NCBI RefSeq assembly: GCF_036971445.1
Contig: NC_091473.1
Location: 183,768,001-183,832,000, forward strand
DNA from: Narcine bancroftii
Lineage: Eukaryota
DNA: 64,000 bases
Direction of reading: 5' to 3'
In this document: piece after piece, positions 40,401-54,559 of the stretch
Position numbering within the stretch: position 1 is the stretch's first letter
Layout: each line of letters begins with the position of its first letter
Program-made: the position numbers and the translations under genes
Notes under the pieces: model-generated
Databases searched by the model: none
What the model saw: the letters and a program-made list of their open reading frames with translations, nothing else
What the model was told of the DNA's origin: nothing

Positions 40401-43362
40401 GAGAATAGTTTGTTTTGCTGCCCCGGAATAACTATTTTAAGTACTGCTGGGTATTTTAACATAAATTTATAACCTTTTTTCCATAGGGTCATTTTTGCTG
40501 CATTAAACTCCCTCATCTTCTTCAGGAGTTCAAAACTTATATCTGGATATAAAAAAATTTTTTGACCCTTGTATTCCAATGGTTTTTTGTCTTCTCTTAT
40601 TTTCTTCATTGCCTTCTCCAATATATTTTCTCTTGTTGTACATCTTAGGAATTTTACTTGGTTTTTGTTGTGGTTGTGGTTTAGGGGCTAATGTTCTGTG
40701 TGCCCTTTCTATTTCCATTTCTTCCTGTAATTCTGGTCTTCCTAGGATCCTGGGGATCCATTCTTTTATAAATTCTTTCATATCTTTCTTTGCCTTCTTC
40801 ATCTTCCTTAAGGCCCACTATCTTTATATTATTTCTTCTATTGTAATTTTCCATTATATCTATCTTCTGAGCTAACAGCTCTTGTGTCTCTTTAACTTTT
40901 TTATTAGATTCTTCTAATTTCTCTTTTAAGTCCTCTACTTCCATTTCTACGGCTGTTTCTCGTTCTTCCACCTTGTCCACTCTTTTTCCTATATCTGTCA
41001 TGATCATCTCTAATCTATTCACTTTTTCTTCTGTACTTTTTATTCTTCTTTTTATTTCACTGAATTCTTGTGTCAACCATTCTTTTAATGTTTCCATATA
41101 TTCTTTAAAAAAATTTTATCCATGTACTTGCCCTTCCCTTCATCTTCCCTTTCTCTGTGTTCTTCCTCCTCTTCTTCTGAGTCCACTCCAGGATCTGTGT
41201 CCTTTACCTCTGTCTCTTCTGGTTTTCTTGTTGGGTTGTTTATTTTATTTTGTTGGGTATTTTTGGTCTTCTTATTTTTATTAAAAGTGTCTTGGTGTTG
41301 GTCTTCTTCCTCTGGGTTGGTCATCTGTTGTTTCTTTGATTTCTTATTTTATTCTCTTCCTTCTTGTTCTCGTTATTTTCTATGTTTTCCTCTTGCTGTT
41401 GTGTTGTAATTGCCTGTTTCAGCTGCGGAGATCTACTCCTCAGCTGGTCCCCCCTCCCGTCAGTGTTATTTTTGTCTTGCGCATCGCGCATGCGCGAATC
41501 CTCGCGCATGCACAGTTGCGCACTTTTGTTTGGCTCCGTGAGCCATTTTTGTAGTCCCGAGTTTGGGGCTTAGACTGACCTCTGGGAGCGGGCTTCTCTC
41601 TCCACGGCGGGCCTCCTCGTACCGGTAAGGCCTTCACCTTCTTCTTCCGACGTCTTTCCTTCTTCTTTCCTTCCCGTTGATTTTGGTTTTTCTTTCTTCA
41701 CTGCCATTTTCTCCACACTTTTACTTTCACTTTTTTATGGTTTTTATGTTTGTGCCTTTGTTTTTTCTCTATCTTTTTTTAACTTTTCTGGAGAGGGCTG
41801 GAGTTCCCCTACCGGCCACTACTCCATCACGTGACTCCTCCGAGTGGTGGTATGTTGATGTTCTCAAAATCTCCCTGTGTTTCCCATTCCGAATGTTTTG
41901 CCAGGTTGTCCCGAGACACTCTACCGCTCAGTCCACGAGAAGATCTTTACCCTGCCACCGGATTGCCTCCTATACCCAGCACATGACTACACGGGTGAGT
42001 GGCCAGTCTGCCCAGCCGCTTGCTAGCAGGGGAGAGGCTGTGTGGCCCATTCAGTTTACACCTACCGCTCCTCTCCAACCCACTGTCTCACCTTGTTGGG
42101 ACCTCTCCTCCCATCCCCAGCTCGTTGGGCCAAGATACCACCCCCTGGTTCCAGACAGTGTTGGGGGAGTGAATGGGTCCACCCAAGGGAGCTCGTCTCT
42201 TTTGGCTGAAACTAAGAGCCCACCCCATTTCCCCACCCCCCCCCAGCCTATCTAGACCTACCCTTGGCCCCCGAACCCCAACCTGATGTTTGGTGGTGTC
42301 ATAAGTTCCAGAGCTGGGAATTAGGGATAGCATTGACTTTGGAAGACTTTGTGAATGAGCATGAGTGCTGAAAGGCCTTATGTCCCAGTATAACAGGATC
42401 AGAGGGGCTAAATGGCCTCCTGACCTGGTGATACAAGAAAGAGTGGCTGAATGACCTCTTGTCCCAGTAATACAGGAGCAGAGGTGTTGAACAACCTCCT
42501 GTCCTGATGTAACATGGTAGAAGGGCTGTCCTGGTATAACAGGTGTAGAGGGGATGAATGGCCTTTCCCAGTGTAACAGGGGTAGAGGGACAGTCCAGGT
42601 GTGCAAACAGAGAGGGGCTGAATGGCCTGTCCCAGTGAAATAGGGGCAGAGGGGATGTTCCGGTGTAGCAGGTGAAGAGGGGAAGAATGGCCTCCTGCTG
42701 TCAGACACGATGTCCCTGTGCTCTCCCCGGCAGGACGGACGGTGACCACGGTAGAGGAAGAACGCAGCCACAATCCACGGCTCACCAAGTCTCTGCCGGA
42801 GTTCGTCACCATCATGAACAACCTCAACCTCCCGAAACCAAAGCAGATCGGTGAGGACCTGTCGGAAACATACCCCTGTCCCCATATGAAAACCGTTCCC
42901 ATCTGTGAACGCAGGGCCATCGAAAACACAGACCCATTAGAAACACACTCACAGACACACCCACACACTCATGACAATGGCCTGAATCTATTTTGTTTTT
43001 CTCCCCATGTTCCCATCATCCATCCCTTGTTCCCCTCTACCACCTCCACCACCATTGTCCCGCTCACATTCCCCTCAATTCCCCTCAATCCCACTCCCCG
43101 ACCCTTCTCCTCCCCCACCCCCTCTTCCTTCCCAAACTCTCTCCCCACCCCTTTTCTCTCCCCCCCACCCCTCCTCTCTCCCCCCCACCCCTCTCCCCCA
43201 TCCCTTCTCTCTCCCACATCCCTCTCCCCAACTCCTCTCCCTCTCCCCCACACTCTCTCCTTCTCTCTCCCCACTCCTCTCTATGCCTTTCTCCCTCCTT
43301 ATCCATCCACCCTGACAGATATCGCAGTTCCTGCCAACCTGCGTTGTGGGCTCCAGGAGTGA
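25912..43362 (+). CDS. ETHE1: Mitochondrial persulfide dioxygenase ETHE1 (metallo-beta-lactamase fold), 7 exons, ~272 aa
   Basis: Exons 25912-26055, 26480-26624, 29308-29456, 29966-30095, 41905-41994, 42734-42850, 43319-43362; all GT-AG, phases consistent, 819 nt. Motifs [47 protein letters not shown] and VPANLRCG. The Arg-rich N-terminus is consistent with a transit peptide. Confidence 0.97.
26480..26624 (+). CDS. ETHE1: ETHE1 exon 2
   Basis: [15 protein letters not shown]...IDPVLE. Confidence 0.95.
26655..29180. repeat. ~52-bp satellite array (~48 monomers) filling ETHE1 intron 2, with 104-bp and 259-bp higher-order repeats
   Basis: Monomer GTCAGACACAGAGTGAAGCTCCCTCCGCACCGTCCCATCACACACTCCCGGG; identical ORF translations at 28204 and 28463 (259-bp offset). 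Confidence 0.92.
29308..29456 (+). CDS. ETHE1: ETHE1 exon 3
   Basis: [15 protein letters not shown]. Confidence 0.96.
29966..30095 (+). CDS. ETHE1: ETHE1 exon 4
   Basis: [38 protein letters not shown]. Confidence 0.96.
30236..31957 (+). mobile_element. 5'-truncated, degraded L1-clade LINE (family B) with a nested CR1 tail at ~30873-31190
   Basis: [16 protein letters not shown] and [25 protein letters not shown] at 31947; related to 47485-52876. Confidence 0.8.
32195..33677 (+). mobile_element. 5'-truncated CR1 LINE (RT domain) inserted in the 52-bp satellite
   Basis: [27 protein letters not shown] and [18 protein letters not shown]; (TCTATG)-type 3' tail. Confidence 0.92.
34537..35590 (+). 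mobile_element. 5'-truncated young RTE-clade LINE nested in the L1
   Basis: LFADD region and C-terminal [33 protein letters not shown] at 34528-34536 and 35591-35599. Confidence 0.9.
37440..40270 (+). mobile_element. RTE-clade LINE with a 5' inversion (APE part 37440-38371 on minus; RT part 38372-40270 on plus) nested in the (TA)n of the L1 inter-ORF spacer
   Basis: Minus strand: [18 protein letters not shown]. Plus strand: [29 protein letters not shown], then an A-tail. A 12-bp duplication lies at 38641 and a +1 C frameshift at ~39425. Confidence 0.92.
41905..41994 (+). CDS. ETHE1: ETHE1 exon 5
   Basis: [30 protein letters not shown]. Confidence 0.95.
42734..42850 (+). CDS. ETHE1: ETHE1 exon 6
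   Basis: [37 protein letters not shown]. Confidence 0.95.
43319..43362 (+). CDS. ETHE1: ETHE1 exon 7 (canonical terminal exon, [14 protein letters not shown])
   Basis: acag acceptor, TGA stop; ATTAAA at 43510-43515. Confidence 0.93.
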
Positions 43363-52876: not shown

Positions 52877-54559
52877 AAACCTGTTCTCCAGTTACATGAA
52901 CTTAAGGTGTGTGGTTCTGCCCCACCTGGTGTCCCCTCCCACCCATTCCCAGCACCAGGGAGATTCCTGAAACCGGGAAGTGAAACCTGTTAGAAACGAG
53001 GTCGGGATAGGTAGAAGCAGGAACACTAGGAAGGCAAGTAACTGCTGGTGCCAAAAATCCCTCAATCATGTGGGACCTTCTACTGACTGCCTCTCAGAGA
53101 CAGGGAGGGGTGTTGGGGACCGGAGGGGTTACAAAGACAGGGAGGGGTGTATGAGACCAGAGCAGATTACAGAGACAGGGAGGGGGGTTAGGAGACAGGA
53201 GGGGGTGACAGAGACATGGTGGTGTGTTGGGGACTGGATGATGTGTAGGGGACCGGAACGGGTTACAGAGACGGGAAGACATGTAGGGAACCAGAGGGGG
53301 TTACAGAGACAGGGAGGGGTGTAGTGGACCAGAGGGGGTTACAGAGACAGGGACGGTGAGAAAAATGAAGGCGTAGAGGGATGAAGGAGTTGAGGTGTAC
53401 TGGAACAGAAACGGAGGGATGGAGGGAGATGGAAAGGAGGATGGATGGTGAGGGGGAGGAAGGGAAAGTTGGATGGAGGGGAGCGTTCGTGGAATAGAGG
53501 GAGAAAGTGGGGGCAGGGTCTCTCTGCCCAGCATCTGTGGGATTTCCTGAAACACAGACCCATGAATTGGGAGAGTTAACCTCTCCCCCTTCCCCCTCTC
53601 TCCCTCCCCTCCCCCCTCTTTGCCCCCTTCTCTCCCCTTTCCCCTTCCTTCATCCTCCCCTCTCCTTTCTGCATGCTCTCACTATCTCCCACCCTCTCCA
53701 CTCTCCCTCCCTCCCCCCCCTTCCTTCTGCCTGTTCCCATCTCTCTCTCTCTCTCCCTCTCTCTCTCTCTCCCACACCTGCCTGTGTGTGGACTCACACA
53801 GCCGGTTTTACCAGCACTGACACAGGATCCAGCTCACTGCATTCCCTCCCTGTGCCTCAGGGAGAGGGACGGGACGCTCGACAGCAGTTCCCACCCTCGG
53901 GTGCTCTGCAGGTAGGTCAGGGCTCATTGGCTCTGCAGTGGTCTGTGACCCCCCCCCCCCCACCCTCTCTGCTATAGCTATTTCCCCCGCCCCCCCCCCC
54001 CCGAATGTGGAATCTATGAGGCACCCATACCCATATATTCCTCACCTGCCCTCATCCTACCTAAATGAACTCCCTCCCGTGGATCTCCTTCCACCCCCCT
54101 CCTAACAGCAGGAAATTCACTTGCCTTTTCTCTGGGACTGTGTGACGGGACGGTGCGGAGGGAGCTTCACTGTGTCTGACCCCGGGAGTATGTGATGGGA
54201 CGGTGCGGAGGGATGTTTCCCTGGACTGGTGAATTTTTTTGTCTGATAACTTCACACTATCAGTCTCCCTGTTGATCTGCATTCTGGATTTCAGAAATAT
54301 CATTAGTAAAACTGTCGCATTTGATTGTGTTGCCCTGAACTATCTCACCTTCTGCCACTGACCTTGTTAGAGTGAGTGGAGATTGTATTGTTTCTTGGAA
54401 TGAGCTGTCTGTTAGTGGGGGGGGGGGGGGGGGGGGGGGAGTTTTTAATCAGCTGGCACAATCACTGAGCCAGGAGTAAAGATAACTATTCTCAGCCCAT
54501 GACAATGCTCTTTCAACACATTTAGACAAATTAATCGCAGTGAGTTATTAGCAAATATA

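Follow-up and report, generated by a model that had tools for sequence, protein, structure and literature searches.

A tandem array of probably inactive last-exon copies at the ETHE1 locus of the ray Narcine bancroftii

We analysed a window of 64,000 nucleotides of the Narcine bancroftii genome (assembly GCF_036971445.1, contig NC_091473.1, positions 183,768,001 to 183,832,000 of the forward strand); all coordinates below refer to this window. Translation in six frames, together with a search for motifs, placed the ETHE1 gene on its + strand. Downstream of the last exon lie three extra exon-like segments, here called copies 2, 3 and 4, with exon 7 itself as copy 1. A preliminary description of the region considered these segments as possible alternative last exons and, failing that, as decaying duplicates. 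The observations presented here point to the latter: exon 6 is spliced to exon 7, the three copies are probably dead today, and the DNA of copy 2 likely serves as a read-through extension of the ETHE1 3' end.

ETHE1 and the layout of the array

ETHE1, the gene of the sulfide-detoxifying enzyme persulfide dioxygenase, has seven exons with AG/GT ends, which encode 272 amino acids with no internal stops. Full-length homology, the metal-binding HxHxDH motif and the C-terminal cysteine are all present, and the closest of the fetched homologues is a sawfish protein (76%). Exon 6 has a single match genome-wide. The ends given earlier for the terminal exons, with the donor of exon 6 at 42850/42851 and exon 7 starting at 43319, were recovered. 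In the alignment, the cysteine of the C-terminal LRCG motif pairs with a cysteine seven residues before the end of the human chain. This agrees with the proposed equivalence to human Cys247, provided that the chain of the PDB structure ends at residue 254, as we assume. Cys247 of human ETHE1 is conserved and has been observed in oxidised form (PMC4383860), and a review reports that its mutation abolishes activity (PMC12926118).

The exons of the gene and the elements of the array are as follows.

25912-26055, 26480-26624, 29308-29456, 29966-30095 and 41905-41994, + strand: ETHE1 exons 1-5
42734-42850, + strand: ETHE1 exon 6; donor GT at 42851; PDB match to human ETHE1 (4chl, E 4e-11); GT..AG joints on both sides in RNA contigs
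43319-43362, + strand: ETHE1 exon 7 (copy 1), the functional last coding exon, 14 codons and stop; joint 42849>43318 in three of four runs; motif agrees with homologues
43363-43747, + strand: copy-1 3' untranslated region (UTR), in which ATTAAA lies at 43510, followed by 3' flank; contigs extend beyond the hexamer to 43685-43821
43748-44052, + strand: 38-bp G-rich satellite array 1 (Tandem Repeats Finder, 8.4 copies)
44053-44470, + strand: spacer with homology to the DNA 3' of the last satellite array, then a CT-rich tract with CAGCAG at its end; a G-tract ends at 44157
44471-44523, + strand: copy 2 pseudo-exon; VPAN replaced by GSDH; one nucleotide deleted behind CGL; stop at 44521; contigs of all four runs span it unspliced
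44524-44943, + strand: UTR-like segment of copy 2, ATTAAA at 44699, and flank; candidate distal poly(A) site; contig ends at 44628, 44689, 44715 and 44797
44944-45709, + strand: 38-bp satellite array 2
45710-46042, + strand: spacer and CT tract 5' of copy 3, 4-6% from the tract 5' of copy 2
46043-46512, + strand: copy 3 and flank; VPAN replaced by GPDN; frame open to 46378, beyond its own ATTAAA at 46284
46513-46909, + strand: 38-bp satellite array 3
46910-47278, + strand: spacer and CT tract 5' of copy 4
47279-47488, + strand: copy 4, frameshifted and without LRCG; mutation in the second CAG; ATTAAA at 47473
47489-52876, + strand: degenerate long interspersed nuclear element (LINE) of 5.4 kb, apparently L1-like by its layout, with RVT_1 matches, at the ATTAAA of copy 4
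52877-53356, + strand: rest of copy 4, with cleavage region, flank and satellite array 4
53357-53771, + strand: spacer and CT-rich tract at the end of the array, an old relative of the internal spacers with 23-26% divergence, a core z of 7-12 in comparison with shuffles and one genome match; the first duplication likely ended here on its 3' side

Self-comparison and alignments resolve three exon-like segments in addition to exon 7, and four blocks made up of poly(A) region, flank and satellite. The order proposed earlier for the copies starting at 44471, 46043 and 47279, namely an in-frame AG acceptor followed by ATTAAA (44699, 46284, 47473), flank and 38-bp satellite, was seen in all three. 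The array is real and tandem, as described; its four blocks are not equal, since exon 7 is far from copies 2-4 and these are close to each other. The account also omitted the LINE at 47489-52876. The in-frame acceptors are 44468/44471, 46040/46043 and 47279; copies 2 and 3 have tandem CAGCAG acceptors, and copy 4 retains the first CAG alone.

A query composed of the poly(A) signal and its flank has five matches in the genome, all inside the ETHE1 array, and the repeat is far above chance. A search with the cassette gave 76 matches, 73 of which cover the CT tract alone. The cassette was also considered as a dispersed repeat; this was rejected, as the poly(A)-flank block is found only at the ETHE1 locus.

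Coding state and transcription of the copies

We compared the C-terminus with 205 fetched homologues, 170 of which could be anchored on the C-terminal CG. The other 35, in which the anchor or the CG is missing, are 22 mostly intron read-through predictions and 13 others; none of 13 left-out homologues inspected has G-x-D before the cysteine. In the anchored set the VPAN positions are nearly invariant (V, L, I or M in all 170, P in 169, A in 168, N in 170). In all three extra copies VPAN is replaced by G-x-D-x, and neither G at the first nor D at the third of these positions occurs in any of the 170 homologues. Frameshifts are present in two of the three copies: a 1-nt deletion in copy 2 and, in copy 4, a shift that removes LRCG. 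The stops of copy 3 (46378) and copy 4 (47737) lie downstream of their own ATTAAA, so that cleavage at the site of the copy itself would leave the transcript without a stop codon.

The C-terminal translations given earlier for copies 2 and 3 read as stated, and both copies do keep the acceptor and LRCG; the break of VPAN in all copies had gone unmentioned. Retention of LRCG is insufficient because the adjacent near-invariant motif is broken. The preliminary description had also suggested comparing the conservation of the exon and LRCG with that of the flanks. For the recent period the exon is not the better conserved: copies 2-4 differ from each other at 5/40, 5/27 and 3/27 exon sites (11-19%, small counts) against 5-9% in the flanks. 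Of the features of a functional array, the locus has homologous terminal exons in tandem and, as motifs, in-frame acceptors and poly(A) signals; a coherent frame with the conserved family residues and a higher conservation of exon than of flank are absent from the copies.

The RNA data are assembled contigs from four runs of one study, with tissue and strand unrecorded. The runs carry no RNA label on record and were taken as spliced RNA because of their GT..AG joints. Spliced joints are seen between exons 5 and 6 and between exons 6 and 7. In the interval 42700-44935, for which the table of joints is complete, two are listed: exon 6 to exon 7 (three of the four runs) and one satellite artefact. 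Each of the four runs has a contig that passes through the copy-2 acceptor without being spliced there (44149-44797, 44164-44715, 44156-44628 and 44164-44689), with neither mismatches nor gaps, with more than 150 nt on each side of the acceptor and with no loose ends listed. The use of the copies as live alternative last exons is unsupported: the sole joint from exon 6 listed in this interval leads to exon 7, although contigs of a single study can reveal a joint but not its absence. At the acceptors of copies 3 and 4 (bins 45874-46067 and 47232-47425) the depth is zero in all four runs, and such contig gaps carry no evidential weight; one small contig lies at 46079-46274 in one run. For the region including copies 3 and 4, 15 of 65 joints are listed. 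Contig depths (about 150-2300 at the junction, 50-110 over copy 2 and, in three runs, 6-20 in intron 6) cannot rank the parts of the gene and were not used.

The contigs over copy 2 begin at most 8 nt from the end of the G-tract at 44157, which points to a break introduced by assembly or library preparation rather than to a genuine start. The RNA here is compatible with a long ETHE1 3' end that finishes in copy 2. The earlier idea that the copies alter 3'UTR control is compatible with this RNA, and the proposed route, by splicing from exon 6, is the unsupported part. An antisense neighbour could also produce the RNA over copy 2 and is possible; no non-LINE Pfam match was found among the downstream frames tested (105 of the 157 listed). 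One loose end at 43685, in run X4, resembles a transposase library adapter and would not be of biological origin.

History of the array and alternative explanations

Divergence within the array falls into two tiers. Between exon 7 and copies 2-4, 30-38% of aligned exon sites differ, as do 24-26% of sites in the first 100 nt of the UTR; the homology of the start of the copy-1 UTR was recovered by pairwise alignment. The terminal spacer differs from the internal spacers by 23-26%. These gapped values are lower bounds. Over the exon and the first 100 nt of UTR copies 2-4 differ among themselves by 8-19%, the internal spacers and CT tracts by about 2-10%. The 3' flanks of all four blocks are 5-9% apart, and their sites have a star-like pattern (private changes 8, 7, 6 and 7; shared splits 4; multi-state sites 2). 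On the simplest reading of these values, the first duplication would be old, with a divergence of about 25% or more, and a young triplication (5-10%) would have followed.

The copies do have the recurring pyrimidine tract and acceptor described earlier. Their upstream sequence is likely 3' flank and not intron 6, since the spacers match the DNA after the last satellite much better: in shuffling tests the score against intron 6 was reached by 391, 8 and 93 of 500 shuffles, and that against the homologous core of the terminal spacer by none of 500 for each of the three copies. On the same simplest reading, the old duplication would have run from the exon 7 acceptor to the CT-rich tract at about 53580-53771.

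Exon 7 and copy 3 differ by ten synonymous and three non-synonymous changes over 14 codons, and the differences common to copies 2 and 3 comprise eight synonymous and two non-synonymous changes over 12 codons. With a never-constrained copy and a constrained exon 7, such a ratio is found in 0.2-0.5% of matched simulations (p ~0.002-0.005), whichever of the two is the ancestor. Long constraint on both, followed by a neutral distance of 0.06-0.1 on the copy, has a best fit about 60 times better (0.28 against 0.004), and this neutral span agrees with the young tier and with the age of the LINE. Copy 3 continues with EQLG and the sawfish protein with DQPG, where exon 7 has already stopped; Q at the second position of this tail occurs in three of 182 anchored proteins, all from cartilaginous fish. 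No annotated protein with the copy-3 tail was found among 180 candidates at E<=10, which is weak evidence. Judged from these codon patterns, coding constraint probably acted on the distal duplicate over a long period that preceded its death; as to past coding use of the copy in general, the balance appears about even or slightly in favour. It could have been a former alternative last exon or part of a deleted tandem paralogue.

The LINE is flanked by a 13-bp target duplication with one mismatch (47476-47488 and 52877-52889), and, of 3415 candidates, 40 were scored, among which are 39 other copies of it at 86-91%. The L1 endonuclease favours TT/AAAA, which the target, the ATTAAA of copy 4 (47473-47488), resembles. 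The LINE ends in an AATAAA of its own just 5' of the original cleavage region. An element of about 105 bp is inserted in it at 50742-50849, splitting the reverse transcriptase frame, and has 90-92% identity to repeat ends at 35484-35588 and 40155-40264.

These data suggest the following candidate sequence of events. An old tandem duplication would have taken in exon 7 together with UTR, poly(A) region, satellite and spacer, probably because the CT-rich tract in intron 6 mis-paired with the one at 53580-53771. The distal exon was then probably long under protein-level constraint before it lost V and A of VPAN. Satellite-aided unequal crossing-over would have homogenised the poly(A)-flank segments and amplified the dead exon to three copies, and finally the LINE would have entered the ATTAAA of copy 4. 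Co-transcriptional definition of terminal exons is well established; the proximal exon would win because 468 nt separate its acceptor from the donor, and because everything downstream is lost once the transcript is cleaved at the poly(A) site of this exon.

For the present day, decay of the duplicates, the fallback of the preliminary description, is the best fit. That the copies with broken VPAN are dead, that exon 6 is spliced to exon 7 and that copy 2 is likely a read-through 3' extension is, taken together, what we consider probable. Several observations weigh against this account and the history attached to it. The 170 homologues are fish-heavy and related, and do not amount to 170 independent tests of VPAN. 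The acceptors of copies 2-4 are comparable to those of the gene itself on simple measures (pyrimidine fraction 0.78-0.86, branch-like motifs at -20 to -23), and assembled contigs lose rare isoforms, so that rare or tissue-specific splicing to the copies could still occur. The UTR extension is putative: no contig joins 43821 to 44149, an interval of G-rich satellite, none of 12 loose ends is a poly(A) tail, the contigs are strandless, and they stop at scattered points between 76 nt upstream and 93 nt downstream of the end of the copy-2 hexamer. Unspliced contigs of intron 6 in all four runs indicate nascent RNA or DNA in the runs. For the CT tracts themselves, z values of -0.5 to 1.7 allow no assignment to either intron 6 or the 3' flank. 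Finally, the constraint test covers 12-14 codons without outgroup DNA; the model of past constraint needs per-lineage distances of at least 0.4 for a good fit (likelihood 0.05-0.28), and at 0.15-0.25, the range indicated by the alignable non-coding DNA, both models fail (0.0003-0.007). The fuller scenario is put forward as possible but doubtful: the ray lineage may long have had two coding last exons, one short and one with the ancestral longer tail, of which the distal one died and was triplicated, its poly(A) signal now providing a distal ETHE1 3' end.

The duplicates might instead have been neutral from birth. They would then never have coded; chance or a local peculiarity of mutation would account for the synonymous excess, and nascent polymerase read-through for the copy-2 RNA. 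Indeed, three non-synonymous changes are close to the expectation at a per-lineage distance of 0.1 (mean 2.6-2.7), third positions differ more (9/14) than the adjacent non-coding DNA predicts, the unspliced intron contigs can be seen as pre-mRNA or as DNA in the runs, and in the cichlid agrp2 gene mostly the 5' copy alone is expressed (PMC6916709). However, the rarity of the observed ratio in the matched simulations and the lower likelihood given above make this explanation unlikely. Long coding constraint without alternative splicing would be explained if the copied exon is what is left of another ETHE1 gene in tandem, which lost its exons 1-6 through a deletion between two CT-rich tracts; this would leave the same layout and the same synonymous excess, and two ETHE1-like proteins are found in other vertebrates. 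It is nevertheless a quite unlikely origin, as no second set of exons 2-6 was found in the window and no further one in the genome (seven matches at E<=1, five being the ETHE1 described here and two weak, with 44% identity). Moreover, the copies share CGL-x-E with exon 7, whereas other named cartilaginous-fish proteins of the same type have CGI/V-Q-D/E, which indicates that the copies do not belong to a divergent second paralogue type.

The proposal of live alternative last exons would have exon 6 spliced to copy 2 or 3 in some tissue or under stress, with an altered, possibly inactive or dominant-negative C-terminus. ETHE1 forms a dimer (PMC4383860), and alternative terminal exons have a precedent in the oyster alternative oxidase (AOX; PMC5589949); at the locus itself, in-frame acceptors, pyrimidine tracts, branch-like motifs and own ATTAAA signals are present, copies 2 and 3 retain LRCG, and the read-through RNA reaches copy 2, so that a substrate exists. 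Against this stand the unspliced copy 2 in all four runs, the broken VPAN, the frameshifts, the stops past the own poly(A) signal and the lack of extra conservation of the exon, and we regard present use of the copies as very unlikely. An assembly artefact is hardly conceivable, as the preliminary description had already judged from the divergence between copies: the region is rich in satellites, but the copies are 5-38% apart, one of them holds a LINE with its target duplication, and independent contigs match copy 2 over 473-649 nt with no mismatches.

Several features of the surrounding DNA may be mentioned. Exons of XRCC1, with XRCC1_N and BRCT matches, lie at 16415-22833 on the - strand, head-to-head upstream of ETHE1; the two genes are presumably adjacent in human as well. 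The same 38-bp satellite occurs elsewhere in the window on both strands (9662-10191, 20680-21064, 22927-23294, 25198-25668, 60473-60624), one site being just upstream of ETHE1 exon 1, and a 52-bp satellite occupies much of intron 2. Intron 4 (30100-41900, about 12 kb) is full of nested LINE fragments, including a pair of 1057 bp with 98% identity (34536-35591, 39206-40262). Intron 6 (42851-43318) has 468 nt, a length divisible by three, and no in-frame stops, so that its retention would add 156 low-complexity residues right before the last exon. On the - strand, an open frame of 992 amino acids with reverse transcriptase and weak zf-RVT matches enters from the window end (61023-63998) and is possibly open reading frame 2 of a young, intact LINE.

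Comparison with known systems

A 2019 paper notes that duplications of terminal exons have been little studied in evolution (PMC6916709). The closest known case, described there, is exon 3 of cichlid agrp2, where a last exon and its 3' region are likewise duplicated in tandem in fish, with up to four or five copies, and mainly the 5' copy is expressed. At ETHE1 the duplication is also local and tandem and comprises the last exon with its 3' flank, the other exons being single, and a spliced joint to the 5' copy is seen in three of four runs. The agrp2 copies are young, near-identical and variable between individuals, and one was resurrected (PMC6916709), whereas those of ETHE1 are degenerate, fall into two age tiers, bear a trace of past coding constraint and include one that is read through unspliced.

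The oyster AOX gene likewise encodes a redox enzyme of mitochondria and has a duplicated last exon, exon 10, in which changes lie close to functional sites. Both exons are spliced and regulated by stress (PMC5589949), whereas no joint to a copy is listed for ETHE1 and the conserved motif is broken; by analogy, the oyster state may resemble the inferred earlier state of ETHE1. The mutually exclusive terminal exons of Drosophila pip form a similar array of homologous exons with 3' ends of their own (PMC9013439); the pip exons are used, and the ETHE1 copies apparently are not.

Alternative polyadenylation in tandem 3'UTRs makes use of two poly(A) signals that are reachable without splicing. ETHE1 differs in that the distal signal is a duplicate of the proximal one, its use being putative. 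Judged by titles and abstracts, the literature searched contained nothing on alternative polyadenylation of ETHE1 or on exon isoforms of shark ETHE1.

No known mechanism is changed by the array as it stands. Its value is that the stages of the locus may be read from the sequence: birth, probable coding use, death, amplification, LINE insertion and possible reuse of a poly(A) signal. It also cautions that a retained LRCG and a good acceptor do not equal a live exon. If the reading with two coding exons is true, the array is a fossil of an alternative last exon recycled into alternative polyadenylation, the live state of which possibly persists in related rays; should such rays still splice both exons, they would provide a natural test of the role of the ETHE1 tail beyond the conserved cysteine. 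Compared with the systems above, the ETHE1 array is a further case of the known duplication of last exons, which the trace of past constraint and the read-through of copy 2 place slightly above the routine.

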